From IMG/VR virus record IMGVR_UViG_3300037400_003880: a DNA stretch of 64,000 nucleotides, one strand, 5' to 3'. The translations under genes were made by a program, and so were the position numbers. Shown here in pieces: positions 3,262-48,511 of the stretch (positions are counted from its first letter, which is position 1; every line of letters starts with the position of its first letter). Below the pieces are notes generated by a model. That model was not told where the DNA came from and did not search any database. It saw nothing but the letters and a program-made list of their open reading frames with translations. The stretch comes from a virus (taxonomy: Duplodnaviria; Heunggongvirae; Uroviricota; Caudoviricetes).

Positions 3262-4038
3262 ATGAAAGGTATTGACGTAAGTTTTTGTTAGTCTGATGTT
3301 ATTGATTGGCAAGCCGTGAAAAACTCAGGCTATGGCGATTTTGTAATGATTCGTGCTGGCTATGGAAGAGTAGCTTCTCAAAAAGATGTTCGGTTCGAAA
3401 AACATTATGCTAACGCAAAAGCAGCAGGCATCCCAGTGGGAGCATATTGGTATTCTTATGCTACTACCCCTGATGAAGCACGTCTTGAAGCACAAGTTTG
3501 TCTTTCTATTATTAAAGGAAAACAATTTGAATTTCCTATTTATTTTGATTTAGAGGAACAAAGAGCTTTTAACACAGGAAAAGCAAATTGTTCTGCTATG
3601 ATTCGTGCTTTTTGCGGCGAGCTTGAAAAAGCCGGATATTTCGCTGGCGTTTACATAAGCCGTGGACCATTTATGTCTTATACAGAGCAGGACATTAGAG
3701 TAAGATATGCTCTTTGGCTTGCAGAATGGGGTAGCAGACTTAATTATTCTGGCTCAGTTGGAATTTGGCAATTCTCTGATAAAGGGAGGGTTCCTGGAGT
3801 TGATGGTTACGTTGATTTGGACGAGTGCTATGTTGATTATTCTAAGGTTATTAAAGAGAATGGATTTAATGGCTTTGAAAAACCAGTTCTGCCGCCATCT
3901 GAAGAAGGCATAGAATTGCCTTATGTTCCTAATATGACTGCATCAGATGTTCAAACTTATTTAAACTGGTGCGCTGAAAAAGGAGCAGGAAATTATAAGG
4001 ATAATGCAGAAGATTTTAAAAAGTTTTTAAATAAATAA
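3262..4038 (+). CDS. endolysin, GH25 family lysozyme (muramidase); one in-frame TAG
   Basis: GGAGG ribosome-binding site. The N-terminus MKGIDVSFC-TAG-SDVIDWQAVKNSGYGDFVMIRAGYG is the canonical GH25 opening (GIDVS..IDW..VK..G..FxxIRAGYG). The TAG falls where many GH25 enzymes have the Gln of the DVSHWQG motif. Continues into track ORF 3316-4038. Confidence 0.85.
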
Positions 4039-4169
4039 AAAAGAAATAAAATGTAATTTATGTCTGGCTCAAAACGATATCCCATCAAATTGTTTTACAA
4101 ACTACATTTTACTATAACGCCGCTAGAATAAGTTCTGGCGGCGCTCTTTATACAGTTGGAGGTTATATA

Positions 4170-4841
4170 ATGAAAAGAGATTGCTAGTGTAATCATCAAG
4201 CAAGGAACGTCAGTTTTGATGATACCATTAATTTATTTAAGAACACTTCTTCTGAGATGATAAGAAATGTTCAAAATGCTATTGAGATACTTGCTGGTGG
4301 ATAGGGTGATGGATAGGGAAGTAGCTTTATCACTAAGGACGTGGCTGATGAGCTATATTTAACAAAAGAAGAGTGGGGTGATTTTATGAATAATTATAAT
4401 TCTAAACTGGATGTTATTATTTAGAAACTTGATGTTATTATTTCTAATATGTCTACTGGTAAAAAAGTTAGACATATTACTTAGAGAGCCTATGATTATC
4501 TTGATACTCACAATGCTCTTGAAGAGGATAAGTATGTTTATTTAGTTGATAATAATGGAGTATGTAGACCAGATATTGACGGAGACGGCGTTGTTAGTAT
4601 AAGTGACGCTCAGGCTATTTCTGTTGCAGCAACAACAATTGGCTCTGGCGGTGATCCTGGATTGACACCTTGGCAATACTTGTGTGCTGATATTAATGAA
4701 GATGATGCTATAAATTCATCTGATGCCGCTGAAGCTTTGATATTTGTAACTGGGGTTGGAGCAGGAGATTATAAAGATACAGAAGAAGGCTGGAGAGAAT
4801 TCTTAATTGAAAGAGGGATAAGAGAGAGGGGTGATGATTAA
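4170..4841 (+). CDS. dockerin-domain protein (224 aa, 6 in-frame TAG)
   Basis: GGAGG ribosome-binding site, then ATG at 4170. Translated with TAG as sense it gives two dockerin type-I calcium-binding repeats (DIDGDGVVSISDAQAI and ADINEDDAINSSDAAEAL). Stop TAA at 4839-4841 overlaps the next ATG. Confidence 0.65.
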
Positions 4842-6061
4842 TGCCACTGAGTCCGGATAAAGTAGAACAATTAAATGGGGTTACTGTAAAAACTTATTTG
4901 TTAACATAGCATAATCCAAATAAAATTGCTATGCCATCAATTGGAATGTCATCCCCCATTGGTGTAACAATTCATAATACCGGCGCAATCAGTGTTGCCT
5001 CAAATACGACCCCGGCAGAACAATATACTCGTGCTACAGTAAATGGAAATATGAACGATGTCAGGGTTCATTTCTATGTAGATGATACTTGTGCATGGCA
5101 GAATCTTCCGTTAAATCTTTCTGGCTGGCACGCGGCAGATGGTTCTGGAAATGGTAATAGAAGAACAATTGCTTTTGAAGTAATTGGTAATTCTACTAAA
5201 GCAGAGGAAAACGCTGCAAAACTTGCCGCTTATTTTTTAAAGAAGTATAATAAAACAGTTGATAATGGCTTGTTCACACATACTCATTGGCTTAATGTAA
5301 GAGATGGAAAAACTGGCTCAATTGATTATTTAAATACTGCTTCTAATAAGTATAAGATGTGTCCAATATATATCTTGCCGCACTGGGTAACGTTTAAGGC
5401 TAATGTAAAAACTGAACTTACCAAATTAAATGGTGGCGCAGCACCACAAGAGCCTAAACCTGTTATAGCAAAAGTATATAGGATTAGAAAATCTTGGGAT
5501 GATATTAAATCTTAGATTGGTGCTTATGCAAACTTTGATAATGCGAAGAACGCTTGGAAAGAAGGATATATTATTTATGATCCAGATGGTAATGCAGTTT
5601 ATCCTGTAGCGGTAGGAATTACAGCATCTTCTAAAGTAGAAGAAAAAGTTGCTGATATTGATGTAACTTATAGAGTTTATGCTAAAAATAGATGGCTCCC
5701 TGAAGTTAAAAATTTAGAAGATTATGCTGGAATCAAGGGATTTCCAATGAGTGCAGTAATGATTAAAACAAGTAAGGGGCAAGTTAGATATCGTGTTCAT
5801 CAGCGTAATTCTAATTGGATGTCTTGGATAAATGCCTATAATATTAATGATATTATGAAAGGTCTTGCAGGAATGCCTGGATTAGCATTTGATGGAATTC
5901 AAATTTAGTTAAATGGTATAGATGGTTATGATATAAAATATCGTACTTCTCCAATTGGCGGAGAATATTATCCGTGGGTATATGGTAGTAATATTAATGA
6001 TTTTGCTGGATATGCTGGAAAATATCTTGATAGGCTTGAAATTGAAATTATAAAAAAGTAA
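4841..6061 (+). CDS. endolysin, N-acetylmuramoyl-L-alanine amidase (Amidase_2/PGRP) with C-terminal Trp-rich wall-binding repeats; 4 in-frame TAG
   Basis: Contains track ORF 4931-5515 (NTGAISVASNTTPAEQYTRATVNGN..GWHAADGSGNGN..AFEVIGN..THTHW, a zinc-amidase signature). The C-terminus has repeats YRVYAKNRWLPEV and RYRVHQRNSNWMSWIN (ChW-like). Confidence 0.8.
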
Positions 6062-6211
6062 GATAGCTTTATAATAGGAAGATACTAGATATCTTCCTAT
6101 CTTTTTTTACTTTATAATAGAATCTTAAGGACTTGACTTTTTAATAGTCTTGTGCTATAATTAAAATAGAATAAGTAGGAAAACTACTAAATAGAAGAAG
6201 GAGGGGTATGA

Positions 6212-6511
6212 ATGTTAAATGCAAGTACAATATTAGGTGGGCTCGGAGCTTTGGCGGCAATAGTTAATGTGATTGTAGAATTATCTAAAGCTTTTATCCC
6301 AAAAAAAGTGCCAACTTAGTTAGTTACAATTATTGTTAGTTTAATTGTTTGTCTTGTTTTTGTTTTTCTTTTTTGCGAAATAGGAATTAAAACAATTATT
6401 TTTGGTATTTTTATGACCCCAATTGTAGCTTTTACAAGTATGAATGGTTTTGATACTTTAACTAAACTATGGAAAAGATTTCAACTTGATCAGAAAGAAG
6501 ATGATAAATAA
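6212..6511 (+). CDS. holin (99 aa, 1 in-frame TAG)
   Basis: AGGAGGGG ribosome-binding site. The product has two or three predicted transmembrane helices and a charged C-terminal tail (KLWKRFQLDQKEDDK), and sits in the lysis cassette. Confidence 0.6.
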
Positions 6512-9500
6512 TGCCAAATATAAGTTATTAGACAGAAAATAAATATATAGACTCTTATGGCGATGTTTATTATTTATTAAATACCCTAATAGGTTATGGA
6601 TTATCTCGTGCTATTATGATGATGATGAGAGAGGGCGAGAAAATCAGTGAAGATTTAAGAAGTGAACTTATTAAGAAAATTGATATTGATAATTTTCAAA
6701 TACCAGATAGTTGGAATCTTTCTGTAAAAAAGATAGAAAAAGATATTGAGGATACAGTTAACGATACTTAGCTTGGAGATATTTTTATAGGAGATATAAA
6801 AAAAGGAAATGCAGGAGTTAATTTTACAAATTGTCTGGTAGAAGAAGATACAGATGGTACAAAAAAGGTTGTAAAACCTTGGAAAAATTTTACTCATTAG
6901 ACTTATCGAGAAGTAAGAAATTATGACGCATATATCAGAAAAAATAATAAATGGAAAGAAACTCCAGAATTATTGGCGGGAGAAAACCTCGATTTTACTA
7001 ATTATTATGGAGAGAATTTTAAACAAGATCTTGAAGAAAGACTGGGCTTAAATCTTTTAATGCCGTAGTATAACAGAGTTGTATAGATAGAAGATTTAAA
7101 TAGGAATTTTTGGGTAATTAGTTAGGTTTTATCAGGATTATCTTCTTTTTTGTTTGGGCCGAGCAAGATAGGTGATATACTAAAAGAATTAATTTTAGAA
7201 ATCGCTCATTTATGGTCTAATGTTGCACTCTTATGGCTTATATCAGAAGGGGAAGATGATGCACTATTTGATACATATTATGAATTTGCTACTTTAAATA
7301 ATCAAGGCTTTATGCACATGAATTATGATTCTTATAATTCACAGTCTCTTGATGATCGAATTAGAGATTTGTTTGATGCAGTTAAAGAGTCTCATCCGCG
7401 AGGTCATATTGTTCTTTTAGTTGAAGTGCGAGACAAGCATTACTGGGAAAATTACTATGCTCAGGTTTCTTATAAGCTATGCGTATTTTCTCGTTATGAT
7501 GGTCATGAATGGATTGTTGACTTATCTTTTAATAAAGGCGATGTTACTTTAGGAGAAGATGGCACTAATGAAGGTATCTTAGCAGAAAATGAAAATGGGC
7601 GTTTAATTACAGAAGGTAATGCAACTCATAATTATTTAAGGAGTACTGAGTTTAGAAAAAATAGTTGTGCATATAGGAGAGATGGAGATAAGTATTCTTT
7701 CATTTATCCGTTTATTAGTCTTACAAATATGAAAAATGATTGGGATTATATGCTTAATTTAAGAATTGTCCCATCAATTGAATTGGTAAATTTTGTAGAC
7801 ATAAATGGTGTGCAAACTCCACAGTTAAAAATTAGCTTTTTAATAGAAGATGTTGGATATGAAATGTATTCTGGAGAAACTTCAGTAATTTATAAAGCAA
7901 CAACAACAAATGAAGTTGTTTTAATAGAAGATTCAATTACGTTAAATCTTGAAAAATAGGATTTTACTAGAATTAACCCTAATAGAGAAAAATTTTTCTC
8001 TAAAACTGGCGGCTATCGAGGAGAGAATTTAACTTGTTTCTTTCTTAACACTTTAATTGCATTAAATTTCAGTGTAGTAGAGCTTCCAATGCCAGGCTTT
8101 ACACGAACTTCTATCTAGCATATTGATAATAATGGAAATAGAGCAATTCCTATTGAGCTTGATTTTCCTAATTATATTAATGATAATGGTAATATTTTTT
8201 CAAGTGCACAAGGCGTTATAAATAGGACTAAAAATTTCTTAACTAATGTTCTTAAAAATTATGTTGATGAAGAACAAGAATCATTTCAGGAAGCTCTCAA
8301 TGAAATGCCTGATGAATTAAAAGTACAATTATTAGATGAAAACTAGAAGCTTAAGACAGAAGATGATGCTTTAGACGTTATTATTATTACTTGCAAATAT
8401 CCATATAGATTGTGGCATTACAATCAAGATGAATCTTATGAAAATATTTTTTATGATTATGACGAAGAGAATAACAAAATTTAGAAGATTAAAATTACTC
8501 ACGGCGGTCTGAAAAAGAGAGGCAATGGAAGAAAAGAAGGCGAATATGTAGTATATGATGGAGATATAGATAATGCGGGTAATGTATTAAACTACGCTAT
8601 GAGTAATCTTGGATATTACCTTCTCATTTGTAAAAAGAAAAAATCTACTAATGGCAGATATTATTATGAGTGCGCCGCCATTGAAGATTACTATTATATT
8701 TTCACCCTTCCAGAAGAGCTTATTAACTATGCTGGCGTCTATGAAGATCCCGTAAAATTAGGTATCTTTAGAAATGAAGACCCAATTCTCTTTTAGAGTC
8801 CAGATGGGAAAAATTGGATTATTAAATGGGTAAGAATTTCTGGTGGACTTATTGGTTTTCAATGGAGAGATAAAGATTTTATCTGGTATGGAAAAAACGG
8901 ATTAAGCACTAATGGTAATAATGATTCCTCACGTGACGCTTATGTTAGAAACGAAGGCTCCGTAAGAGTTCTTCAGTATAATAATGATGATGATGATATT
9001 ACCAGAGTTAATCTATTTAAAACATTTAATGATGAAGTTACAGAAGCATATCCTGATTTAGTAACTGAAGAAAAATTCAGTACTAATTTAACAGGATAGA
9101 ATAAGGAATTAAAAGGGATTATAGGAAGAGTATAGACTAATTACATAAGCTTTTCGATGTCAGAAGAAGATGAGGAAAAAGTATCTTGGTGTGCAAGAAT
9201 GTAGTCACGAAACACTGATTTGTATGAAAGATTTTATTTAGATGCGAGAGTCGATTCTCCAAATGGGATGAGAGATTTTGGGAACTATTATGAAGATTAG
9301 TGGTAGGATGTTAATAATCTTTTATGGGCACCGGGACAATCTAGATATGAATATGTAGATTAGTGTTTAAATTGGTCTGCCGGCACATTAAAAAAGACCT
9401 CTGATGAAGCTGGTAATTATAAAGATGGCGGTTGGAGATTGTTTGGAACATGGTATCTTAAAACAGGTGAGACAATGCCTGGAGAAGAGAATGATAATGC

Positions 9501-9615
9501 TAGTGCAGCATTTGCTGATATGGAAGCAGCCATTGAAACAGATTATGTATTAATGAGTAAACTTCCTATATATGATTATAGCGTAGATCCTTCTACCGGA
9601 ATTACGGAGGGATAA
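6511..9615 (+). CDS. very large hypothetical protein (about 1034 aa, about 17 in-frame TAG); paralog family member A
   Basis: ATG overlaps the holin stop. A single frame runs through track ORFs 7150-7959 and 8599-8796 to TAA 9613-9615 and contains only TAG stops. Carries the motif EDLNRNFWVIS. Confidence 0.55.
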
Positions 9616-9616
9616 A

Positions 9617-11224
9617 ATGGCAGATATAATTAGTTTACAAGAAATTCTTGATGAATGTTATAGTAATAAAGAGAGTCGTGAACGTCTTGACTTATTGCTA
9701 TCTTCAATAAAGGTTTTCTTTAATTAGATTTATGATCGTTTTTCTGGAAATGACTCTGGTGGAGTTAATCTCTAGATAAAAAAGAATATCAATTCTGAGA
9801 TTAATGATAGTTACTATCAAGACATTAAAAAATCTGATTTAACTGACCTTGAAGAAGGAAATGAAGCTTCTTAGCAAGTTTATTCAGAAGTTGGATCATG
9901 GAATCATAGTGTTGTTGATTTATTGAATGATGTTCTTTTAATAACTAAAGAGGGCGATTCTACCTATAAAGTAATTGAAAATGAGTATGAAGATGATAAG
10001 GGAACTTATAAAATAATTTTCTATAAGGGAGAAAATGAAGATGTTGGAGTTCCCTTTCATGGCGCCATTAAGGTTGATATGCCAGAGGATTAGAAAATTA
10101 TTTATAAAGGTAAGGAATATGCTTTATATTATAGAATAAAAGACATATCTAAAGCAGACGCGGGAGCATCATTTAATAGAGAAGACGGCATTCCCTGGGT
10201 CATTCCATTTCACAATAATAATGGAGATATATATACTTCTGTTAGAACAGATGAAATTCTATCTGCTTTAGAGTATACTGACTATTTAAAACAAACTTAC
10301 GATGAGATTAAAAATGATATAAATAAAAACTATGTAAATTTATTAACTGATTTATATTAGAGACAAGTTGAAGTTGAAGATTTAGATAGAGACTTTTGGG
10401 TTATTAGTGAAGTAATCACTGCAATACTTAATTATTTATTTAACAACAATGGTCTGTTTGGAATTTAGAAAGGAATTTTAAATGAGATAGCATAGCTATG
10501 GTAGAATATTATTTATCTATGGTCTTTGCATGAGAAAATGAATGAAAAACCAGAAGGGCTTTATACTCACAAAGAGTTCATTTATATTGGGAGGAATTTA
10601 CGATATGGCCAATTTAGATATGATTTAGGCGGCGAGGACGATGAAGAATCAATTAAAGACTATCTTAGATAGTACAAAAAATCATATTTAAGTTGTAACT
10701 TAGTTTTAATTCCAATTGTTCGTAAAGATTATTATGAAGAAAATTTCTATCAGACAGAAAAAATTCCTTTTATTTATTATTATGACAGAGAAAAAGATGA
10801 AGAAACTTTTGTCCGCTTCAAATGGAATCCTGAAGTGCTGGAGGATAAAGCTTTTCCAATTATCACTGAAAACAAGCTCGAATTAAAAATAGATACTTTT
10901 TCTGATTTATTAGAAAATCATTATTACACTGATAATAATGAAGACTGGGAATAGATTCTAAGTCCTGATTCCGGACAATACCAACTGCTTAAAATTTCGC
11001 CATATTTTACAGAAAATGGTGTAATGTTAAAAGTATAGACGATTGAGCAAGGATCAAGATTGACTCGTTGTGAAATTTCTTTTTCTACAAATTTAAATGA
11101 TAAAGACTCTGAAAACAGAATGATAGTAAGATGTGTTTTAGTTAATGAATAGATCTCTATAGCAGAACCCGTTCAGGTGTCCTACTATTAGGGTGAACTA
11201 TTGAGTAAAAGGAGTGAAGATTAA
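9617..11224 (+). CDS. large hypothetical protein (535 aa, about 13 TAG); paralog B (EDLDRDFWVISEV)
   Basis: ATG at 9617 lies 2 nt after the previous stop. The frame stays open through TAGs to TAA 11222-11224. Confidence 0.55.
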
Positions 11225-14031
11225 TGAATAGATTCATTATAGCTCCTGAAATATGGAATGAAATAATGAATAAAATATCGGATAGTTATGAAGGAGAAAT
11301 ATCTAATAAGATTGACCCCTTTTAGAGTGAAAGTGAAGCGCCAACTGTTGATAAATTTTTTGATATAGAGCTTTCTAACTTTTGGAATAAATCTGTTCAA
11401 GACTTATATGATGATTGGAAAGAATATTATGGAGAAGAAGACCATGCAATAAATATAAATGGTTTTACCCATAAGATTAAAGAATTTGCTCATGGAGACG
11501 CAGGATATGATTTTAATAAACAGTATGTTTAGCCACAATTAATAGGGTAGAACAATAAGTATTCTCCAGATTTTGTAGCCGCGGCGCAAGACAGTAAAAA
11601 TTTACAGTTTACTAATACTTAGCTTAAAAATAACAATTACACCTATAGGCTTTTAATGCCTAAAAATATAAGACGTGTTGAAGCAGAAGATTTAACAAGA
11701 AACTTCTGGGTTATTTCTTAGGTATTAAATGGAATAGTTAACTTCCTTTTTACTGACAATTCTCCTTATGCAAAATTTTATGAAGGGATAATTAAAGAAT
11801 TAAAAGAATTGTGGGAGAATGTTTTATTTTTATGGTTTAATGCAGAAATGCTTGGTAAGCAGAAAGTTGCAGAAGGTCTGCATATAGAATTTGTTCCTAT
11901 TGATAGTGACTCTCCATATAAAAGATAGTTTGATAACTATACCGAAAGAGAAAAAAGCGAAGAAGAAATATTAGAAATTTTAAAAGACTATTATTATAAA
12001 TATCCTGAATCAAATCTATTATTAATTCCCTATTCGCGCTCTGCTCCATTTTATCGAAATTATCATACAACTTTAAAATTTTATTTGTTATGCTTTTTTA
12101 TTAGAAAAAATAACTATGAAGTAAATAGTTGGGATGATCCAAAATGCAGGAAAATTAAAAATTTTACTAAACCTCTTGAAATTGATATTAATAATTATTT
12201 AGAAAATATTACAGCAATTAGGGAGAAAGGAAAAATACTTAGACTTGGAAGACCATTATCTAAGGTTCCTAATTTTGAAGAAAATGATGAGGGAATTTAC
12301 TATGGACAAATAAGAGTTGTTCCAGATATTAAGATTAACGATGATATAAATAATCTTGGTATAACAATGAAATTATCATTATATGACGTTGGAGAATATT
12401 ATCGCTCTGGCGAAGAGGATATAAATTCTGAAAACACATTATTACAAGCATTTTATTTTACTTGTTCAGAAAAGCAAGACGAAAGTATTGAGTATGTAGA
12501 AAGTGAAATCTTTCCAAAAAATCCTCTGCCATTTTTCAATTATCCAAGAAGAAATTATGGAGGATATAAAGGAGAAACTTTAACGACTATTCGTCACAGC
12601 ATAAAAAAAAGAAACTATATTGCTGGAGAAAAGACTTCCATTTCTTTAAAGGGAGATTTGTTTAGAGTTGGAAACTTTATGGGAGAGCTTCCTGAAGAAA
12701 ATAATGTTATTAGAGAAGGTATTTATGAATTTAGAGAACAAATTAATGATAGCCATACTCATACCAATTATTTGACAAATATTGGAATGGGTGGTTTTTA
12801 GAATGGCTCGCCTGCGCCTGAAAACTGGTCTAAACTAGGCGGAGCAGAATGGATGCCTAATGAAAGTTTATTTTACACTCCCGTAGCAAGAGAAGAGTCC
12901 AATATTAGAAAATCTCCGCAAGATAATGTTGAAGATCCATGGACTTGGGGAGGTAGCGCGACAGAATTCCATTGGACATGTATAGATGATTCTTCAAGTG
13001 GAACAATCCCTGATGATTATTGGGATAAATTAATAGCAGGAGATTCTAGTTTCATTGAAAGAAATACTTATAAAGTAGAAGAAGTTACTAAACAAAGTAT
13101 AAAATACATTGGATTAGTAACTTTAAAAAGATTGCTTTTAAATAATAATTATTTAAGATATTTAAAGAAAGTCAGGGCAATAGATTGGACTCTTGATGAT
13201 CCTATTACTTTTATGGGAGCATATGGAGTAGACACGTGGGGCGGAAAAGGAGTAGGAGATAATGGAAATGTTGCTGATTAGTTATATTGGGCAACAGTTA
13301 TTTTATCTGGTTTATATATATTTCTTCCTGAGAAATTCCTTGATTATGCAAAAGATTTTGAGAAGACCTACCCTATTAATATAGAAATTAAATAGGGTGA
13401 AAAAAATTTAGGACGTCTTTTCTTTTTAAGAGAGATAAATAAAAGTGAAATAAATTTCGGAAACCCAGATGAATATCTTAAAAGGGTAGGTGGCGTTCCT
13501 TGGAGATTAGTTAGAAATATTGGTAATAGTGAAGTTGGTGTAAACTACGTTGAAATTTTCGATGAAGAGCAGAGACTATTAGGATATATTGGGCTTTCAC
13601 AAGATGAAAGTAAAGAATATGAATAGACAATGGATAAAAACCGGTATGTTACAAATTTAATTAATAATTCTGCTGCAAGATTAAAAACGAAAGATGAAAT
13701 ATTAGTTGAATTAATTAATGGAGTATTCTCTTCAAATAATGGTATTTGGAGAGTTTATGACGGAAATGATACAAATGAAGAAGGCAATAAATCAGATTAT
13801 CTAAATTATAGACAAGTTGTTGATGCACGATATAAACTTAATGGTTCTGGAGCACAAGAGACTCTTGGTTTTAGTGCAATTGCTATAAGAAGAAGAGATA
13901 CTACATTATTTACTAATGTGGGTAATTCAACAGATCCAAACTTTGAAGAAGCAAGTAATTTGATTTGGTCAAATCGCGGCTTAATGCCAGACAGCGGAGG
14001 ATATTCTGGAAATACTTGGAATTAGGGGTGA
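11224..14031 (+). CDS. large hypothetical protein (935 aa, about 12 TAG); paralog C (EDLTRNFWVIS)
   Basis: ATG overlaps the previous stop. The frame joins track ORFs 12085-12801, 12853-13281 and 13630-14025 across TAGs and ends at TGA 14029-14031. Confidence 0.55.
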
Positions 14032-14037: not shown

Positions 14038-14316
14038 ATGTCAGAACTTTTCAATGAACAAGTATCTTCTCATGCTCCGATTCATTCAGATGCTTATAAA
14101 TGGGAGGAGTCCAATAATGGACTCCCTCCTTTTAAAGAAATTCTATTGAATGGATAGATTGAGGAGGATAAGATTTATTTTATAGAAGATTTAAGTGGTG
14201 AATCTGGATTCTTTTAGAAGTTACTATTAGAAATAGAAGACAGGATTGAAAGACTTGAAGAGCTGATTGAGGAAGCTAGTCAAATAAGTTCAGATAATTA
14301 GGGAGATGAAAGCTAA
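14038..14316 (+). CDS. hypothetical protein (92 aa, 3 TAG), acidic and coiled-coil-like
   Basis: ATG at 14038 runs to TAA 14314-16 and overlaps the next ATG. Confidence 0.45.
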
Positions 14317-16682
14317 TGGGTATGATATTTAGAAATGGAGTTGCTTTTGGTGGGCAAGGAGGAACAGATCCTATTTCTGCTGATAGTAATTAGGTAATTA
14401 TAGGAGATGGAGCAGATTGGGCTCATGGCGGCCCACTAAAAATTATAGAAACAGAAGGAGATTTTTTTGTAAAAGATAATTATAATAGCAATCTTAGGAA
14501 TATATACATCACTTCATTGCAAGATTCCCCGGAATCTTATTATAATAGAGATACCGGCGAGACTTATTTATTTGAAGCGTATTCCTTTGGAAGCCTGCCA
14601 AAACTTACTTCAAAAAAAGACTCTGACGGTCATTATAAAGAAGTTTATTCTCAAGATACTTTTTTAAAACTTAATAGCACTTCTAAAATGCTTTTAAGCG
14701 GAAAAACGGATATTCTCATTGGGGCGCAGGAATGTCTTCCTTACTCTTCCAATGCTATGGAAACAAAAATTAAAATATTCGATGGCGCAGATATTACAAT
14801 TACTGGAACTCGCTTAACTAGTACAAGAGTTATTACAGATGCGAAATAGATAGCGAGACCAAAATTACGAGCACATGGAGAAATAAATATAGATATTGAT
14901 GATGGAAATCGAATTTGGAGAAATTGTACACACTATTCTTATTTTAATGGGGATAATTCTTCTAGATATGCATGGGGAGATGAAAGTGATATTGATATCA
15001 TAGGGCCGGTTTTCTTAATTCACGACTCTCCTACTTTTCATATTTCTGGCTCTCCTTATCTTAATATAACAGATACTCCAGCCTTTTTATTAGGTGGAGA
15101 AGGATCTTTAATAGTTAGAGATTAGGCAATTTGTTAGGTTGAGAATGGTTCGTGCTTTTATATGGGACATGATAAACATGAGAGTGGATCTCCGATATTA
15201 GAGCTATATGGGGCAAGTCGAATTAGGGCGCAAGCGCTTGATAATGAAAAATATGGTCCATTACTTTCTATTGAAAGTTCCATGCTTAGTTTTTATGGAC
15301 AGGGAAACCAAGAAAAATCTAAAGCGATCCATAATAAAAAAGACCGTCCTGAAGACTATCGAGAGTGGGCGTAGAAAAGTAAAGCAACGGCAGATTTTCT
15401 TTAGTATATTAAAAATTTAACCTTCCCTCTTGACGAAGAAGAGGATAGTGAAGAAATTCAAGAAATTAAAAGGTTATGTAGTTATTGCTTTGGGCACAAT
15501 ACTGTTACTGATCTTTATCCTAACTATTCAGCCAAAAATTTTTATAGAATAGCTGATGGTGATATTGCGTCATTTTTAAGTAATTATCTTGAAATATCTT
15601 ATAATCCAACTTATGAAATTGAAAAAAATTCTCTTTCAAAATATATAAACATTTATTATCCGACAGATATAAAAATTTGGGATGCATATTCATATTCATA
15701 TTAGGATGAAAGGTATAATATTATAAATACAAATGGATCCATTGAAAGTCGTATTGGAGAAAATGTTGGTTTTGGTATTAGAAAAGTTACTAATCCAAAT
15801 CATAATAGAGTTTTGCTCCACTATTGTACGGATATGAGCAAAGTATATATTGAAATAAAATATTCAAAAAAAAGTTACTCTGATTTAGGAAATTATTAGT
15901 CTAATTTTGTAAATTATTATAATCATAAAGTTTCATGCTCTTATCTTCCTGATAAAGTAACAGATAATTACCCAATAGTAACAGACCCTTCTTCATATCC
16001 GATTGGAGAAAATTATGATGATATTTTATCAGAGCATAATGCAAATAAACCAGCATCAATATATGACCTTCTTTTTATTACCTCTAATGGAAAAGTTTAT
16101 TATAGAAAAGGAAATTGGTCACAATTTTTAAACTCAACAACTTCTAATTATGATTCTTTCTTAAGTAAACACGCAAACGAGCTATCAATTGATGCAATTC
16201 CTCAACTTAGATTCTATGGAAGTACAGGTTTTGATATCGGCGGTTTTGGTAGTACTTATCTTAGAATGGGTAGTCGAGACGGCGGAGTTATTGAAACTTA
16301 TATGCTAGATAATTGTAAATTTGAATTAAGAGATGATGCAGTTTTAGACGTAAGAGGCGCGACACAAAATAATGAAGTTTATTTTTCTAAGCCTGATAAT
16401 GGTGCTCTTGTCGCTGCATATGGAAAATCTACTTTTATTCTTGCTGGTATCGGCGATGGTAGATCAAAAAATTTACCTTCAAATTATTATGAAAAGAATA
16501 ACGGTTTTCCTTTCTTAGGGCTCTTTGATAATGCTGAATTGAGATTGGCAGATGGATGCTTTATTACAGCAAAAAGAGAGTCTGGATAGGCGACCTTTAC
16601 TTTCGGAGATAATATGGCTGGAGCATCGGTTTCTTTTACTATGGAAGACCTTTATCATTTAAAAGCATTATTAAGTAATTGA
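14316..16682 (+). CDS. large hypothetical protein (788 aa, about 10 TAG)
   Basis: The frame joins track ORFs 14517-14849, 15162-15374 and 16266-16589 across TAGs and ends at TGA 16680-16682. Confidence 0.55.
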
Positions 16683-16727
16683 CTTTTAATAAAAAATATA
16701 TTATAATAATTAAAAGAGGTGATAGTA

Positions 16728-17819
16728 ATGTATCGTATGGGTTCAGATGGCGGTGAATTTTATTCTTTCATCGCAACAAATTCATTACCAATTGGATATT
16801 CCGATGGCGCACCATTTATGTCTGCCAATAGACCAGTACCTTCTTTTAATTCAAAAGAAAAAATTTTAGGACAAACTTATGGATATATGGCTAATAGGGG
16901 AGAGCTCCGCTCTTCCCAAGCCTTTGATTCTCAAGAAAAAATGTACTCTCTTGGGAATAACTGGGTTTGTCTTGCGGTCGCAAATTATCAAAAGACATAT
17001 CACTCAACGGATATTCATGCGGATTATGTAAAAACTCCGACAGATAGGGATATTGCGGCATTTGTTGAGAATGCTCACAAGCGTGGGGTTAAAGTTTGTC
17101 TAAAGCCGATGGTAAATACAGAAGATGGAGTTTGGAGAGCACATATCGGTTTTCCAGATTTACATTCTGGAGATATGGATTATTATTGGAAATTGTGGTT
17201 TATTAGCTATAAAAATTTCCTACTCCATTATGCAGAACTCGCGCAAGAACTTAATTGTGAAATGTTCTGTATCGGCTGTGAGATGATTGGTACAGAGCAT
17301 CGTAAGTATGATTGGCTATATCTTATTGATGAAGTTCGCAGAGTTTATAGTGGTAAAATTGTATATAATACAAATCATGACAGAGAAGATGCACAGGATT
17401 GGTTTGACACTCTTGATTATATTGCAACTTCAGCATATTATCCAGTTGGAATAAATGGACTTAATGAAGATGCAATGATTCGAGAATGGAATAAAGTGAA
17501 ATGGCGATTAAATGCAATTGCTGATAGCAGGAAAAAGCAATATATTTTTATGGAAATTGGCTGCCGTTCTGCAAAAAATTGCGCAACAGAGCCATGGGAC
17601 TTTAATACACATATGGAGCCAAGCTTAGAGGAACAAGAGCTTTTTTATAAGACTTGTTTAAAGACTTTTATTGATGACCCACATTTTGCTGGTGTATTCT
17701 GGTGGGACTGGCCCACATATCTCTACCCAATTGATGCCGCGGCGCAAGATACAAGTTATTGTATTTATGGTAAACCAGCAGAACAGATAGTTAGAAACTA
17801 TTATAATAAGGTGAAATAA
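16728..17819 (+). CDS. TIM-barrel glycoside hydrolase-like protein (GH5/GH113-like; possible depolymerase)
   Basis: AAAGAGGTGA ribosome-binding site, then ATG at 16728. The ORF has no TAG. Motifs VKVCLKPMV, EMFCIGCEMIG and FWWDWP look like a (beta/alpha)8 hydrolase. Confidence 0.55.
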   Translation: MYRMGSDGGEFYSFIATNSLPIGYSDGAPFMSANRPVPSFNSKEKILGQTYGYMANRGELRSSQAFDSQEKMYSLGNNWVCLAVANYQKTYHSTDIHADYVKTPTDRDIAAFVENAHKRGVKVCLKPMVNTEDGVWRAHIGFPDLHSGDMDYYWKLWFISYKNFLLHYAELAQELNCEMFCIGCEMIGTEHRKYDWLYLIDEVRRVYSGKIVYNTNHDREDAQDWFDTLDYIATSAYYPVGINGLNEDAMIREWNKVKWRLNAIADSRKKQYIFMEIGCRSAKNCATEPWDFNTHMEPSLEEQELFYKTCLKTFIDDPHFAGVFWWDWPTYLYPIDAAAQDTSYCIYGKPAEQIVRNYYNKVK

Positions 17820-18391: not shown

Positions 18392-19477
18392 ATGAAATTT
18401 AATATTCGACAAGAGAAAGTTCTTAATGCTACTGAGCCTAAAATCTTATGTCTTGCAACAGCAGCTTGCGGCAAGACAAGGGTTTTAACAGAACGCATCC
18501 GTCTTTTAATTAATGAAAGAGGAGTATCTCCAAGAGATATTGTTGCAATTACTTTCACAAATATGGCTGCCGATGAAATGAAACGTCGTCTTGGTTCAAT
18601 TGCGAATGAAGCTTTCATTGGGACTATTCACTCTTATGGAAATAAAGTTTGTATTAATAATAACATTAATACTCAACCTTTTGTAGATAACTATGAATTT
18701 GATAAAATCCTAAAGAAAGCTATCACTATTCCCTCTGAACGTTATCCTCATATTAAGCACGTTCTAGTTGACGAGTGTCAAGACTTAAGCCCGTTAGAAT
18801 ATGCTTTTCTTGAGAAAATTCCAACTGAAAATATCTTTTTTGTTGGCGATAATCGACAGGCGATCTATGGGTTCAAGGGATCAACAGATGAATATCTTGT
18901 TTCCATGTATGAAGATGAAGCTTATAAAAAGTATTATCTTGTTGAAAACTATCGTAATGCGCAAGATATTCTTAATTTTGCAGATAGTTTAATTGCATCT
19001 TTTATTCAATTAAGTCCTAAGTCTATCCCCGTAAAGACAAAAAGTGGCGAAGTTATTAAGGAATCATTTTATGAAGCATTGGAAGAGCTTGAATATTCTG
19101 GTAATTGGGGATCTTGGTTTATCTTAACTCGCACCAATGCAGAATTGGCACAGGTTCAAGAAATGCTTGATCAGAAAAAGATTCCTAATATTACTTTCAA
19201 GAAAGGAGATCTCGACCTAACAGAGCTTGACCAACTTATGCAAAGTGATAGAGTTAAGGTTTTAACTATTCATTCTGCAAAAGGATTGGAGAATAAAAAT
19301 GTAATTGTAGTGGGCGCGCGAACTTACAATGAAGACGAGAGAAAGATTGCTTATGTAGGGGCAACCAGAGCAGAAAACCGCCTATATTGGTGTCCCGCAG
19401 TTTCGAGAAGAATTCGTGGTAGAAGAAAAGACTCTACAACCACAGGACATATTAAAACTGATATGATAGAGTTTTGA
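18392..19477 (+). CDS. SF1 DNA helicase (UvrD/PcrA-like)
   Basis: Walker A AACGKT, ITFTNMAADEM, Walker B VDECQD and VGDNRQAIYGFKG motifs. GGGAGG ribosome-binding site. No TAG. Confidence 0.8.
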   Translation: MKFNIRQEKVLNATEPKILCLATAACGKTRVLTERIRLLINERGVSPRDIVAITFTNMAADEMKRRLGSIANEAFIGTIHSYGNKVCINNNINTQPFVDNYEFDKILKKAITIPSERYPHIKHVLVDECQDLSPLEYAFLEKIPTENIFFVGDNRQAIYGFKGSTDEYLVSMYEDEAYKKYYLVENYRNAQDILNFADSLIASFIQLSPKSIPVKTKSGEVIKESFYEALEELEYSGNWGSWFILTRTNAELAQVQEMLDQKKIPNITFKKGDLDLTELDQLMQSDRVKVLTIHSAKGLENKNVIVVGARTYNEDERKIAYVGATRAENRLYWCPAVSRRIRGRRKDSTTTGHIKTDMIEF

Positions 19478-20089: not shown

Positions 20090-20386
20090 ATGAAGAAGAT
20101 TTTAACTGGTATTGTATTAGCATTGACTGCTATGATTGCTGTAGGTTGTACTGATAATACACCTTCAACTGTAGAGGCTCCTACCACAGAGACTACTATT
20201 GAGACTACTGTAGATGAGACCACTACAACAACTGAGGATATTATTGTAATTACTGAAGCAACAGAAAGTGACACTACAGAAGTAAGCGAAACTGAAACCA
20301 GTAAGCCTACTGAAGAGTCTACTGTTAAAGAGACAGAGACTACTGAAGCTGAAACAGAAATCGAGACTACTGAAAATTTTCAGTAA
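20090..20386 (+). CDS. lipoprotein, Thr/Glu-rich
   Basis: Signal peptide with lipobox AVGC, then TTETTIETT repeats. AAAGGAGG ribosome-binding site. Confidence 0.55.
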   Translation: MKKILTGIVLALTAMIAVGCTDNTPSTVEAPTTETTIETTVDETTTTTEDIIVITEATESDTTEVSETETSKPTEESTVKETETTEAETEIETTENFQ

Positions 20387-20442: not shown

Positions 20443-21114
20443 GTGGCACCGGTTGTAACAACCAAAACAACTGAGGCGGCAACCACTACTGTAACTACTA
20501 TGACCACAGAATCGGTAGCAACAACAACTACTACTGAATTAGCTACGACAGAAATAGTTACAGAACCGTCAACTGAAACTTCGCTCAAAACTATAGAAGA
20601 AATTGCAAGAGAAGTTTGGGCAGGTCATTGGGGTAACGGCGAAGAAAGGAGGAGAAAATTAACTGAAGCTGGATATGACTACGATGAGGTTCAAGCTGAA
20701 GTCGCAGAATTGAAAAGCGAATGTTATACCCCAGTTGATAATGGCAACGACACTGGAGCATCTACTGGAAATGAGACTTATGTAAAAAGATTCACTCGCG
20801 GCACGTACTATTGCTATGGGTGCGCCAAGAGTGGTGGTTCAGGTCGAGCATTGATTGAGTGTAATACTTATAATGATATTAAAGGATCTATCGCATCAAG
20901 CTATTTGTATAATGCTTACGGATATAAATATAGCGGTGGAAGAACTATGGTTCGGCTTGAAATTGATGGGTATCCTTCTATGAATGGATACTACTATTTG
21001 GATGATAGCGATGCTGGAAATCCGAATGTTATTGATTTTTATTATGTCTATGCGAGCAACTGCCCCTTTAGAAATCAGGGCGTTGTTCAAGTGGAATGTT
21101 GGATTGTAAATTAA
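20443..21114 (+). CDS. cell-wall-binding protein with a CW_7-like motif (start uncertain)
   Basis: A Thr-rich linker is followed by EVWAGHWGNGEERRRKLTEAGYDYDEVQAEVAEL, which matches the Cpl-7-type repeat. A Cys-containing C-terminal domain follows. Confidence 0.5.
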   Translation: MAPVVTTKTTEAATTTVTTMTTESVATTTTTELATTEIVTEPSTETSLKTIEEIAREVWAGHWGNGEERRRKLTEAGYDYDEVQAEVAELKSECYTPVDNGNDTGASTGNETYVKRFTRGTYYCYGCAKSGGSGRALIECNTYNDIKGSIASSYLYNAYGYKYSGGRTMVRLEIDGYPSMNGYYYLDDSDAGNPNVIDFYYVYASNCPFRNQGVVQVECWIVN

Positions 21115-24390: not shown

Positions 24391-24826
24391 CTTTGAAAGG
24401 ATTACTGAACTGAAGAAGCAGTTAAAAGAAATAAGCGAAGAAGGAATGAGGAAAACTCAACTGCAAATTAATATACAGCAGGAGCTTAATCGTTTACAGA
24501 GAGATAGACTAACGCCACTGGTTGGGAAATTTTTTGCTTCTAAAGCCAGATATTTTATGGTAACTGATGTACCGCAAGAGATTCTTACTATGTATGGAAC
24601 TCATTTGAATAGCCATCAAATCCCTATCTATTCTCTTTGCGTTGACGAATCTGACGGAGATTATGGCGAACTGGGAGAAGAAACACTTCATTCTAATTGC
24701 ATCGAACAGGATGATATTTTTGCGGCTTTTATCGCGGAAGGGAACACTGAAATTACAAAAGAAGAGTTTCTTAATAAAGTAATGAGTGTCGTTAACGACG
24801 TTGCTGATAAGGGGAAGAAAGAATGA
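24383..24826 (+). CDS. hypothetical coiled-coil/acidic protein
   Basis: GGAGGAG ribosome-binding site, then ATG at 24383 (MNNFERITELKK). Confidence 0.5.
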   Translation: MNNFERITELKKQLKEISEEGMRKTQLQINIQQELNRLQRDRLTPLVGKFFASKARYFMVTDVPQEILTMYGTHLNSHQIPIYSLCVDESDGDYGELGEETLHSNCIEQDDIFAAFIAEGNTEITKEEFLNKVMSVVNDVADKGKKE

Positions 24827-26400
24827 GTGCGATTGTTGTAAATTTGTTTGGCGCGGCAGGTTGTGGAAAATGCTTCACAAAAGGAACTAAAGTTCTTATG
24901 TGGAATGGTGAAGTAAAAAATATTGAAGATATTTATGTTGGAGATTGGGTCATGGGAGATGACTCTAAACCAAGAGAGGTATTGGAATTACACAGAGGTA
25001 GAGCGCCGCTTTATTTATTAAAAAGAAGTTTTTCTAAAGATATTATTGTAAGTGCTAACCATATTCTATCTTTAATGAATTATCACAGGGATGGATCTTG
25101 GTCTTATGAAGATATTTCTATAGAAGATTTTCTTAATAAAAGTCTTAATTATCAGCGCAATTCAAGATTGTATAAGACATCTGTATCTTTTTCTACAGAA
25201 GCTGAAAGGAATAATCTTAAAATTGATCCGTATTACTTAGGCTATTGGCTTGGAGACGGCTTATCAGATACGATAAATCGTTTTTGTACCGCGGATGAAG
25301 AGATTATTGACTATTGTCGAGAATATGGAAGGAGAATTGGGTTGTCTCTTAAACAACATTCTTACAACGACGGGAAGTGTCAAACTTATTGTCTATCGGA
25401 GGGAAATATTGGCAATCACTCTTTCCATCCATTAAAAGGAAATATTTACAATCTTCGAAATAATAAGCATATACCAACAGAATATAAAACAACAACTTTG
25501 GAAAATAGACTTGCGCTTATTGCTGGTTTAATTGATTCTGATGGTTCTCTTAATAATACATCTTATGACTGGATAAATAAAAATAAGACTTTAGCTTTTG
25601 ATTTTTATCAGCTTGTTAATAGCTGTGGTTTAAGAGCTACAATAAGAGAATGCACAAAAAGTTGTGGAGATTTTTCTGGAACTTATTATCGAGTTAACAT
25701 AACTGGAGATTTAAAAATGATTCCAGTAAAAATAAAACGAAAAATTTGTTTGAATACTATACAGGATCCATCGAAAGTTTTAAGAGAAAGCTTTAAGGTA
25801 ATTCCCATTGGAGAAGGGGAGTATTATGGTTTTACTACTGATGGAAATCATCGTTTTGTATTAGATGACTGTACAGTAGTCCATAATTCAACTGCCGCGG
25901 CATATGTATTCTCTCAATTAAAAATGAGAGGAGTTAATTGTGAACTGGTTACTGAGTATGCGAAAGATTGTACTTGGGAAAATAGAGAGATGGTATTAAA
26001 TTGTCAAGAATATATTTTTGGAAAACAGTCTTATAGGTTAAAGCGATGCGCCGATAAGGTGGATGTAATTATTACTGACAGCCCTCTTCCTATAGGATTA
26101 TTTTACAATACTGATCCCGCATTGGATGATAATTTTAAGAATGTTGTTATGAATATTTATAATAAGTATTGTAACGTGAATTATCTTTTGACAAGAGTTG
26201 TGCCATATGACCCAGTTGGTAGGAATCAGACTCAAGAAGAAGCAGATATGATTGGGGATAAGATTCAAGATTTTCTTGATGATAATGATATTCCTTATGT
26301 TCATGGGATAGGGGATATTGATTTTTATAATCTTATCGTTAATCAAATTGTTTCAATATTAAAGCTTATAGAGGAAGAGGAAGAGGAGGCGAAAGAATGA
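24823..26400 (+). CDS. P-loop nucleotide kinase (dNMP-kinase-like) interrupted by an intein
   Basis: The Walker A motif GAAGCGK-[intein]-STAAAYV is split exactly at the K/S junction. The exteins together give about 186 aa with VIITDSP. Confidence 0.75.
   Translation: MSAIVVNLFGAAGCGKCFTKGTKVLMWNGEVKNIEDIYVGDWVMGDDSKPREVLELHRGRAPLYLLKRSFSKDIIVSANHILSLMNYHRDGSWSYEDISIEDFLNKSLNYQRNSRLYKTSVSFSTEAERNNLKIDPYYLGYWLGDGLSDTINRFCTADEEIIDYCREYGRRIGLSLKQHSYNDGKCQTYCLSEGNIGNHSFHPLKGNIYNLRNNKHIPTEYKTTTLENRLALIAGLIDSDGSLNNTSYDWINKNKTLAFDFYQLVNSCGLRATIRECTKSCGDFSGTYYRVNITGDLKMIPVKIKRKICLNTIQDPSKVLRESFKVIPIGEGEYYGFTTDGNHRFVLDDCTVVHNSTAAAYVFSQLKMRGVNCELVTEYAKDCTWENREMVLNCQEYIFGKQSYRLKRCADKVDVIITDSPLPIGLFYNTDPALDDNFKNVVMNIYNKYCNVNYLLTRVVPYDPVGRNQTQEEADMIGDKIQDFLDDNDIPYVHGIGDIDFYNLIVNQIVSILKLIEEEEEEAKE
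24871..25887 (+). mobile_element. intein (339 aa) with a LAGLIDADG homing endonuclease domain
   Basis: Begins with Cys1 (CFTKGTKVLMWNGE, Hint block A) and ends VVHN, followed by Ser+1. Two LAGLIDADG motifs are present (YLGYWLGDGL and LIAGLIDSDGSL). Confidence 0.8.
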
Positions 26401-31529: not shown

Positions 31530-32474
31530 ATGAGTTTTTTTGTAAGTAAGGAAGGCAATATCAGAGTAGGAAGAATTATCACAACATCAGTTATTGGGCT
31601 TACGGCTGTTGTTTCTCTTTTTGCAAGTTTTTCAACAGTCCCCGTTGGTTCAACTGGCGTAGTGGTAACTCTTGGACAAACCCAGTCTATGACTCTGGGC
31701 GAGGGATTCCACATTAAGGCTCCTTATATTACCCATATCGTATCTATGGATAATCGTATTCAGAAGCAGGAGGTCAGCGCGGCAGCAACATCTAAGGATT
31801 TGCAGGCTGTCAGCACTACAATTGATGTGAACTTCCATCTTTCACCGGGGAATTCCAACTCGATGTATCAGACTATTGGACAGAATTATTCAGAGATTCT
31901 GCTTGCTCCGGCAATTCAGGAGAGCGTAAAGAATGTTATGGCACAGTATTCTGCCGAACAGCTTATTACCCAGCGTTCTACTGTAAGCGTAAGTATTCGA
32001 GAAGAGCTTGAAAATCGAATGACTGAATATGGTGTAATTATTGACGAGTTCAATATTACTAACTTCCAGTTCTCCGCAGAATTCGATGCCGCTATCGAAG
32101 CAAAGCAGGTAGCAGAGCAGAACAAGTTGAAGGCTCAGACCGAGAAGGAGCAGAGAATTATCGAAGCTGAAGCAGCAGCTCGTGAAAAGGAAGTTGCAGC
32201 AGAAGCAGAAGCTAATGCTACTCTTGCAAAGGCAAATGCAGAGGCTGAAGCAATTCGTGTGAAGGCAGAGGCTGAAGCTGAAGCTAACCAGAAGCTTAAT
32301 CAGAGTTTGACCAGCGGCATCCTTGACTATCAGGCAATCCAGCGTTGGAATGGTGAGTATCCTACTGTAATGGGTGGGGAGAATACTCTGACCATGATTG
32401 ATGTTGGTAAGAATGATGCGCCGGCAGTTGTACAGGCTCCGACTGAAGCTGCAACTGAAAAGGCAGCAGAGTAA
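31530..32474 (+). CDS. SPFH/band-7 (prohibitin/HflKC-like) membrane protein
   Basis: N-terminal transmembrane helix, a band-7 core, and a C-terminal Ala/Glu-rich coiled coil (AEAEAIRVKAEAEAEAN). Confidence 0.8.
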   Translation: MSFFVSKEGNIRVGRIITTSVIGLTAVVSLFASFSTVPVGSTGVVVTLGQTQSMTLGEGFHIKAPYITHIVSMDNRIQKQEVSAAATSKDLQAVSTTIDVNFHLSPGNSNSMYQTIGQNYSEILLAPAIQESVKNVMAQYSAEQLITQRSTVSVSIREELENRMTEYGVIIDEFNITNFQFSAEFDAAIEAKQVAEQNKLKAQTEKEQRIIEAEAAAREKEVAAEAEANATLAKANAEAEAIRVKAEAEAEANQKLNQSLTSGILDYQAIQRWNGEYPTVMGGENTLTMIDVGKNDAPAVVQAPTEAATEKAAE

Positions 32475-48115: not shown

Positions 48116-48190
48116 TGGGGTATCGCCAAGTGGTAAGGCACAGGACTTTGACTCCTGCATCCGTGGGTTCAAATCCCTCTACCCCAACCA
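48116..48190 (+). tRNA. tRNA-Gln (anticodon TTG), CCA encoded
   Basis: U1:A72 acceptor TGGGGTA/TACCCCA. D-arm GCCAAGTGGTAAGGC. Anticodon loop CTTTGAC. T-loop TTCAAAT. Closely resembles E. coli tRNA-Gln. Confidence 0.75.
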
Positions 48191-48193
48191 TAT

Positions 48194-48271
48194 GCCGGTG
48201 AAGCTTAAGTGGTATAAGCACTCCCCTTATAAGAGAGAGATAGATGGGTTCGAGTCCCTCGACCGGCACCA
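48194..48271 (+). tRNA. tRNA, identity uncertain (anticodon loop CTTATAA reads TAT; Ile2-like?), non-canonical T-stem
   Basis: Acceptor GCCGGTG/GACCGGC. D-arm GCTT..AAGC. T-loop TTCGAGT. CCA encoded. The anticodon stem has one mismatch. Confidence 0.45.
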
Positions 48272-48510: not shown

Positions 48511-48511
48511 T

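Follow-up and report, generated by a model that had tools for sequence, protein, structure and literature searches.

Why should a gene for a dockerin protein lie among the lysis genes of a bacteriophage? The question is raised by a 64,000-nucleotide stretch of the IMG/VR virus record IMGVR_UViG_3300037400_003880 (Caudoviricetes), hereafter referred to as the window. Between positions 3262 and 6511 it encodes, all on the + strand, a GH25 muramidase of 258 amino acids (aa) (3262 to 4038), the 223-aa dockerin protein g2 (4170 to 4841), an Amidase_2 endolysin of 406 aa (4841 to 6061), and the 99-aa holin-like protein g4 (6212 to 6511). The original prediction, made from the sequence alone, described a lysis cassette of two endolysins and a holin with an embedded dockerin protein, and suggested cohesin-mediated targeting of phage proteins. 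The position of the dockerin gene stands, and cohesin-mediated targeting appears to be a reasonable inference, but the gene product is probably not a lysis protein, since its N-terminal module is fibre-like and its dockerin subtype occurs on tail-tip and virion proteins. We propose that the region is a late, amber-recoded junction between fibre and lysis genes, in which g2 would act as a fibre or adaptor and the dockerin unit as an address tag, likely for a cohesin of a host scaffoldin, a reading to which we assign a probability of about 45%.

The four genes are found at these coordinates only if TAG is read as Gln, and each of them is preceded by a Shine-Dalgarno sequence. Under translation table 11, the region appears as scattered short open reading frames (ORFs) and all four genes are fragmented, while taking TAG as a sense codon raises the ORF coverage of the + strand from 39.7 to 56.3 kb and reveals abutting genes; on these grounds, ORF calling with table 11 was dropped in favor of code 15. 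TAG is the final codon of none of the 79 accepted genes (at least 80 aa), and a sister genome (L051), assembled independently from another sample, carries the same cassette at about 99% identity with every in-frame TAG kept. The phage occurs in samples SRR12668996 and ERZ28634147. Furthermore, ARAGORN identified two tandem suppressor tRNAs with anticodon CUA (49293 to 49439, + strand), whose D- and T-arms are similar to those of the phage's own tRNA-Gln(UUG), so that the cassette should be translatable. The conserved in-frame TAG codons, the lack of TAG stops, and the suppressor tRNAs show that the phage uses code 15. The tRNA-CUA pair belongs to a 19-gene tRNA array (48116 to 54750), in which one call (53143 to 53215) has an abnormal anticodon of two bases. 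In-frame TAG codons are densest in the first 16.7 kb (13.4 per 1,000 codons versus 3 to 6.5 elsewhere), and within the cassette the muramidase contains one, g2 five (all in its N-terminal half), the amidase three, and g4 one. Late and lysis genes with in-frame TAG have been reported for code-15 gut phages (bioRxiv 10.1101/2021.08.26.457843; PMC9523058). Amber-recoded gut phages show the same enrichment in these genes and a tRNA-CUA in the tRNA array; the recoding of this locus is already described in published code-15 phages, and nothing about it is unusual.

The dockerin of g2 is genuine. The module, together with an extension helix, occupies residues 130 to 215 (4557 to 4814, + strand), scores 24.3 bits against Dockerin_1 (PF00404), and contains two intact Ca loops, D135 to D146 (DIDGDGVVSISD; 4572 to 4607, + strand) and D174 to D185 (DINEDDAINSSD; 4689 to 4724, + strand). 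Both are canonical 12-residue loops, with D or N at positions 1, 3, and 5, D at position 12, and a helix thereafter. An exhaustive HMMER search returned 362 significant relatives of g2, and 100 of the 101 homologs tested passed Dockerin_1, with a best E value of 9.5e-86. The AlphaFold2 (AF2) model, built on 46 aligned sequences, predicts for this module a two-repeat, three-helix fold with a predicted local distance difference test score (pLDDT) of 91 to 98, in which helices 144 to 158 and 183 to 198 follow the Ca loops and an extra C-terminal helix spans residues 205 to 215. When the model was compared with the PDB by Foldseek, the top 14 matches were all dockerins, the best being 8ajy_B, the dockerin of Ruminococcus flavefaciens ScaH in complex with its cohesin (template modelling score, 0.81; root mean square deviation, 2.1 Å). 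The two-repeat, Ca-binding dockerin that had been read from the D-x-D-x-D-G pattern is thus confirmed by its match to the dockerin profile.

The homologs of this module fall into two sequence types. The majority are bacterial and end in "...GAGQD.K..DFVH"; an LRR_5 domain is also present on 28 of the 101 top matches, mostly of this bacterial type. The type of g2 instead follows the pattern "(Y/F/W)PD.DGDG ... ADADRDG ... GAG.Y..TPEGW..F(L/M)N", the additional segment being modelled as a helix, and on this evidence the g2 dockerin is a phage-borne subtype with an extra predicted C-terminal helix. Its carriers include distal tail (Dit)-like proteins (phrog_33), a virion structural protein (phrog_1220, 2e-60), a protein that also bears the Phage_tail_C tip domain (P0005, 40.8 bits), and a tape-measure-like protein of 994 aa with a PhageMin_Tail domain (3e-47), found in 1 of the 101 homologs (P0012, the sole sequence of that kind inspected). 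In genome bins scanned with a 6-sequence alignment of the phage-type module, full-length matches were confined to metagenome-assembled genomes (MAGs) labelled Ruminococcus sp. or Oscillospiraceae, of which several came from rumen or omasum, and there the module lies on Dit-like proteins and on proteins of about 545 aa combining a fibre with Dockerin_1 and LRR_5. A search of 50,697 deposited phage genomes gave no match to the module, BFVD holds a few uncultured-phage proteins automatically named "Dockerin type 1," and literature searches that paired dockerins with phages, endolysins, virions, or viromes yielded a single item, a note from 2026 about a contig of a putative archaeal virus (PMC13452462). 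In one g2 ortholog (P0017), the Ca loops are degenerate and the helix-GAG-extension is retained, which suggests that function is conserved in the half bearing the extension. As a separate observation, an Oscillospiraceae MAG contig (L026, positions 2 to 2725) contains a single standard-code ORF of 908 aa that joins a fibre-type N terminus, Dockerin_1, LRR_5, Peptidase_M15_3, and GH25; it may be either a virion-associated multi-lysin or a fusion or assembly artifact.

In the window, three proteins carry a dockerin unit, whole or half: g2, the GH25 muramidase, and a secreted protein that we named d2. The muramidase (Pfam Glyco_hydro_25, E = 3.5e-25; phrog_291 endolysin, 9e-46) was assigned its start at 3262 on the basis of the Shine-Dalgarno sequence (GGAGG, 10 nucleotides [nt] upstream) and the N termini of homologs. 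We found 4,610 homologs, and residues D5, D96, E98, and D185, which we take to be the catalytic acidic residues, are invariant in 56 relatives. In the AF2 model (mean pLDDT, 92.7), a catalytic barrel is followed by a floppy linker (pLDDT, 55) and a C-terminal tail with helices at 227 to 241 and 249 to 257 (pLDDT, 87 to 95), predicted to form a tethered two-helix hairpin. This 40-aa tail (residues 219 to 258, LPYVPNMTASDVQTYLNWCAEKGAGNYKDNAEDFKKFLNK; 3916 to 4035, + strand), to which the original prediction made no reference, is derived from a dockerin: the alignment of tails (A6) matched that of phage-type dockerins (A3) in hhalign with a probability of 96.9% and an E value of 1.9e-10. Its counterpart in the dockerin is the extension helix together with the helix that follows the second Ca loop; the tail itself has no Ca loop and is the only candidate targeting element of an enzyme devoid of a conventional wall-binding domain. 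The possibility that it is a recent copy of the 3' end of g2 was rejected because the tail is kept across a large GH25 family (about 256 to 267 aa) and shares only about 30% identity with g2. Tail-bearing GH25 genes occupy endolysin positions elsewhere, after a 1,568-aa tail fibre gene in one contig (L053) and between XkdX upstream and a 60-aa ORF downstream in another (L054). Among deposited phage GH25 endolysins, no tail was found, the matches covering the catalytic domain only.

The third carrier, d2 (217 aa; 43532 to 44185, + strand), is free of TAG and has a signal peptide, as expected from the description of a second secreted dockerin protein at this place. Its dockerin is, however, limited to a single C-terminal repeat (GDIDGDGLINANDAFLILSYSAYRGAGGNRSFKEWLA; 44072 to 44182, + strand) composed of one Ca loop, a helix, and a short extension. 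Against Dockerin_1 it reaches 15 bits, below the Pfam cutoff, whereas a hidden Markov model (HMM) of the phage-type dockerin gives it 30.8 bits (E = 6e-8), the alignment falling on the second repeat. The score of g2 against d2 was reached by 2 of 2,000 shuffled sequences.

The remainder of g2 sets it apart from cellulosomal components and probably from lysis proteins. Cellulosomal components are secreted carriers with a signal peptide, and g2 is not of this kind: hydropathy analysis revealed neither a signal peptide nor a transmembrane segment (maximum KD19, 1.14), and Pfam gave no enzymatic or carbohydrate-binding domain. Its first 45 residues form a conserved N-terminal module (N-module; MKRDCQC.H.ARNV.FDD...NVQNAIE.L; 4170 to 4304, + strand), with 14 invariant positions in alignment A2 and homologs in P0006, P0017, P0020, P0029, P0054, P0084, P0151, and P0152. 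What follows this module differs from protein to protein: P0017 and P0029 end in dockerins, P0006 in an Ig-like HL_N-beta domain, and P0084 in adhesin-like repeats with a near-threshold Phage_tail_C match (20.9 bits, under the cutoff of 23.7), while P0151 is short and is followed by a separate LRR_5 gene (contig L004). The relatives with adhesin-like repeats and a tail-tip-like motif measure 260 to 358 aa. In g2, the N-module precedes a long helix, probably a coiled coil according to the model (residues 56 to 95; 4335 to 4454, + strand), whose low to moderate pLDDT in the DSSP-assigned helix 66 to 95 is what the modelling of an oligomeric helix as a single chain should give, and a small beta-alpha-beta unit. 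Close relatives of g2 or of the N-module alignment were not found among deposited phages (tblastn), in IMG/VR, or in JGI metagenomes, and a word-indexed protein search returned only g2 itself or two short fragments. Between g2 and its counterpart in L051, there are three synonymous changes and one nonsynonymous change, with all five TAG codons kept.

The genomic context of the N-module gene is equally constant. In the window and in contigs L003, L004, and L008, all four from amber-recoded phages, it lies immediately 5' of an orthologous amidase gene (64 to 94% identity in the three contigs), and thus g2 is not merely embedded among the lysis genes: it forms with the amidase a pair conserved in four recoded lineages. 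In the window, the stop codon of g2 and the ATG of the amidase overlap by 1 nt (TAATG). The second lysin varies, being GH25 in the window, a Phage_lysozyme2+SH3 protein in L008, and an M15 peptidase encoded downstream in L004, and the C-terminal domains of the g2-type genes are swapped between dockerin, leucine-rich repeat (LRR), and Ig-like. Upstream of the N-module gene there can be XkdX (L003) or a fibre-like gene. An RVT_1 reverse transcriptase is encoded in L003 (422 to 1935), before XkdX and two genes upstream of the g2 ortholog, and may be part of a diversity-generating retroelement acting on a nearby binding protein. A UvrD-type helicase of the window (18392 to 19477) is 80% identical to that of L008 (6366 to 8492), a LAGLIDADG intein-like insertion being present only in the latter.

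Phage fibres and receptor-binding proteins are built with a constant N terminus and exchangeable C-terminal binding domains, a plan that favors a fibre or adaptor function for g2. The same conclusion is favored over a lysis role by its TAG density of 22 per 1,000 codons, like that of the giant late genes and unlike that of the lysins. Hence, g2 is most likely a virion fibre or adaptor and not a lysis enzyme. According to the mechanism that we propose, lysis would be carried out by the GH25 muramidase, the Amidase_2 endolysin with a repeat-type wall-binding domain, and a three-transmembrane holin under its own promoter. The protein g2 would be small, non-enzymatic, and probably oligomeric, consisting of an N-terminal attachment module, a coiled coil, and an exchangeable C-terminal binding domain. 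The dockerin unit, whole or half, would serve as an address tag on tail-tip and fibre proteins of related phages, at the C terminus of the muramidase, and on the early secreted d2, and the target common to all would most likely be the cohesin module of host cell-surface scaffoldins. On virion proteins the tag would mediate adsorption; on the muramidase it could act as a minimal binding domain that keeps the lysin on the lysing cell; on d2 it might occupy the same sites from the inside out, perhaps masking the receptor. The dockerin units suggest, in short, that the phage attaches its own proteins to the cell surface through the host cohesin-dockerin system. It is possible to extend this hypothesis, in a form that we consider somewhat doubtful, to the idea that these phages use scaffoldin cohesins as their receptor and have turned a dockerin lineage of their own into a portable tag for three stages, namely, adsorption, surface binding of the muramidase, and receptor masking, where the purpose of d2 would be superinfection exclusion or protection of the progeny.

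Several observations weigh against a fibre or adaptor addressed to a cohesin. The Dockerin_1 match of g2 is a narrow pass, 1.4 bits above the cutoff of 22.9. The N-module has no annotation in PHROG, Pfam, or the PDB, for which reason its designation as an attachment module derives from its domain partners; its profile gave nothing meaningful against PDB sequences, and P0084 gave one weak match, to a trimeric autotransporter (E = 0.3). Phage_tail_C (PF24243) did not match g2, either at residues 99 to 127 or in the segment of residues 95 to 135. The window contains no capsid, portal, or tail-tube genes with respect to which g2 could be placed, and no Cohesin domain was detected among the 16 window proteins scanned, including large late and secreted ones, the window being part of the genome. 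Moreover, the conserved element is the helix-GAG-extension and not the Ca loops, as the loop-less tail of the muramidase and the degenerate P0017 indicate; as the conservation falls outside the canonical Ca-binding part, the ligand may be something other than a cohesin. Lastly, the tight pairing and translational coupling of g2 with the amidase, in four lineages, would fit a lysis partner equally well.

This last point leads to the main alternative, namely, that g2 is a non-catalytic, oligomeric targeting subunit for the amidase and/or the muramidase, which, by analogy with PlyCB, would supply their surface-binding domain, and which we judge unlikely without regarding it as negligible. The analogy draws on an N-module gene placed directly 5' of the amidase in all four lineages while the second lysin and the C-terminal domain vary, but another contig (L042) has the amidase and holin without any N-module gene. 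The 1-nt overlap and the terminator-like hairpins bracketing the pair agree with joint expression of a lysin and its subunit; however, the amidase already possesses a repeat domain of about 200 aa. In favor of such a subunit, the muramidase has only its 40-aa tail in place of a conventional wall-binding domain, and the single ORF of L026, in which fibre, dockerin, LRR, M15, and GH25 are joined, shows adhesion modules linked to lysins. Nevertheless, the adhesin-like repeats and the tail-tip-like motif of the longer N-module relatives would be needless for a lysin subunit, and the other carriers of the dockerin subtype are tail and virion proteins.

A different role for the dockerin units would be assembly between phage proteins, either with a cohesin-like domain encoded elsewhere by the phage or by pairing of the halves on the muramidase and d2 with each other or with g2. 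Although the half-units could not form a canonical two-loop dockerin alone, their meeting is difficult to envisage, as d2 is secreted early and the muramidase is cytoplasmic and late, so that the two would not come together before lysis; in addition, for phages with a tail-bearing GH25, no dockerin protein could be detected within the 20 kb examined. The presence of the module on several different tail-tip proteins would suit virion assembly, and the window is only part of the genome, yet the large late and secreted proteins scanned include no cohesin. We therefore regard assembly as quite improbable.

Similarly low odds are given to the view that g2 and d2 are accessory "moron" products that plug into the cellulosome or amylosome of the host and alter its physiology, taking part in neither adsorption nor lysis. 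The recruitment of proteins onto scaffoldins is the normal task of dockerins, d2 is secreted and TAG-free, and the phage has genes for a GH113 enzyme and a sortase-type adhesin as well. The properties of g2 do not conform to this picture: it lacks a signal peptide as well as any catalytic or carbohydrate-binding domain, its heavy TAG recoding implies that it is made only late, and what is conserved is its gene position and N-module, the dockerin being exchangeable. Finally, despite the slim Pfam margin, the notion that there is no dockerin and that the D-x-D-x-D-G repeats reflect chance or a generic motif of EF-hand type is refuted by the 362 homologs, of which 100 of the 101 tested pass Dockerin_1, and by the high-confidence dockerin fold.

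The two endolysins of the cassette were both recovered. The amidase (Pfam PF01510, E = 2.7e-11; phrog_15001 endolysin, 2e-86) has its catalytic domain at about 4955 to 5287 (+ strand) and, at its C terminus, three aromatic repeats of about 45 aa each (5654 to 6058, + strand) detected by internal repeat comparison; the score of R2 against R3 was matched by 0 of 2,000 shuffles. These had been described as Trp-rich wall-binding repeats. The repeats themselves are significant, but the C terminus contains only four Trp residues, and searches of it in isolation with ChW (PF07538), CW_7 (PF08230), and SH3 gave no match up to E = 10; judging from its sequence, it would be a repeat-type wall-binding domain of its own, of about 200 aa. 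Terminator-like hairpins follow the muramidase gene (4118 to 4143, + strand; 11 pairs, 7 of them GC, then a T-run; identical in L051) and the amidase gene (6074 to 6100, + strand, with a run of seven T's).

Downstream of the second hairpin, a putative sigma-70-like promoter (TTGACT, 17 nt, TG-TATAAT; 6133 to 6161, + strand), identified by consensus match only, precedes g4; it is the best match of the region (11 of 12 positions, with an extended -10). The g4 protein has three hydrophobic segments, with hydropathy peaks near residues 14, 46, and 64, and a charged C terminus (KRFQLDQKEDDK). No Pfam or NCBIfam holin model matched it, and its similarity is to phrog_18218, of unknown function (1.8e-12). 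A homolog follows the amidase of L042, which is 53% identical to ours. The original assignment as a holin is retained on features and context, namely, small size, transmembrane segments, a charged C terminus, and a position beside an endolysin, because no curated holin family matches.

Beyond g4, three paralogous large late proteins (6511 to 14031; 1,034, 550, and 935 aa, with 11 to 17 in-frame TAG each) have in common the motif "EDL.R.FWVIS.V...(L/V)N(F/Y)LF" and match neither Pfam nor PHROG. They are followed by a 788-aa protein (14316 to 16682) whose C terminus resembles that of the 673-aa protein preceding the amidase in L042. Between the giant late genes and the helicase lies a TAG-free, full-length GH113 glycoside hydrolase gene (16719 to 17819; Pfam E = 1.8e-104), whose product could help to degrade polysaccharides as an auxiliary enzyme or act as a depolymerase. 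The CW_7-like protein noticed earlier at 20443 was confirmed (20443 to 21114; E = 1e-17): it has one repeat and an unassigned, Cys/Tyr-rich C-terminal domain, follows a Thr/Glu-rich, lipoprotein-like ORF (20090 to 20386) in the segment 20090 to 21114, and may be a third wall-active protein. A 525-aa protein (24823 to 26400) has, as judged by eye, the look of an intein-containing protein. In the early or middle region, a TAG-free gene encodes a membrane-anchored SPFH/Band_7 protein (31530 to 32474; E = 1.1e-31). Another TAG-free gene (35411 to 37120) encodes a secreted protein of 569 aa with a pAdhesive_15 domain (E = 1.5e-32), a Thr-rich stalk of about 250 aa, and, at its C terminus, a hydrophobic anchor and charged tail that resemble a sortase-type signal, and it looks like a phage-encoded adhesin on the host surface.

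As for the host, a cellulosome-bearing Ruminococcus or Clostridium had been proposed. Ruminococcus/Oscillospiraceae appears likely from the relatives of the phage proteins, given the fold match to R. flavefaciens, the MAG occurrence of the phage-type dockerin, the named GH25 relatives from Ruminococcus/Oscillospiraceae, and the DNA similarity of the amidase to Ruminococcus phages; nothing points to Clostridium. The pairing of cohesins and dockerins is the assembly principle of the cellulosomes and amylosomes of key fibre- and starch-degrading bacteria of gut and rumen, and it has so far been studied almost wholly as a bacterial system for organizing enzymes. If our proposal is true, these surface machines double as phage receptors and the capacity for fibre degradation is tied to phage predation. 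The phage-type dockerin would then provide a sequence-based handle for predicting the hosts of uncultured rumen and gut phages, and its form of about 40 aa a very small targeting tag for engineered lysins. Libraries and arrays of cohesins already exist that would allow a direct test of the hypothesis.

It is useful to compare the locus with systems that share parts of its organization. Ruminococcal type I dockerins, such as that of R. flavefaciens ScaH (PDB 8ajy), share with the g2 module a three-helix fold and a pair of 22-residue repeats whose Ca loops are EF-hand-like. Different from them, g2 as a carrier has no signal peptide, enzyme, or carbohydrate-binding module, and its dockerin bears an additional conserved C-terminal helix (GAG.Y..TPEGW..F); the phage module resides on virion proteins, exists in loop-less and one-loop versions, and its binding to cohesins is predicted only. 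Modular endolysins of phages of Gram-positive bacteria, for example Cpl-1, combine a GH25 or Amidase_2 catalytic domain with a C-terminal wall-binding domain. The order of catalytic domain, flexible linker, and targeting element is the same here, as is the position beside the holin after tail-fibre genes, but the targeting element of our GH25 is a 40-aa, two-helix dockerin remnant and not a choline-binding, SH3b, CW_7, LysM, or ChW domain. PlyC, a two-component streptococcal phage lysin, consists of the catalytic PlyCA and the separately encoded binding subunit PlyCB; g2 resembles the latter as a non-catalytic, probably oligomeric protein encoded beside and co-expressed with a catalytic lysin, a likeness in gene arrangement, and the amidase here has a binding domain of its own. 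In siphophages, "evolved" distal tail and receptor-binding proteins carry grafted binding modules, and the same pattern of adhesion modules appended to Dit, tape-measure, and fibre proteins, with C-terminal swaps between relatives, is seen in the family of g2, the graft here being a protein-binding dockerin in place of a carbohydrate-binding module. Altogether, the lysis locus is ordinary for a code-15 phage except in one respect, the dockerin lineage specific to phages that is found on fibre-like proteins, on an endolysin, and on a secreted protein.

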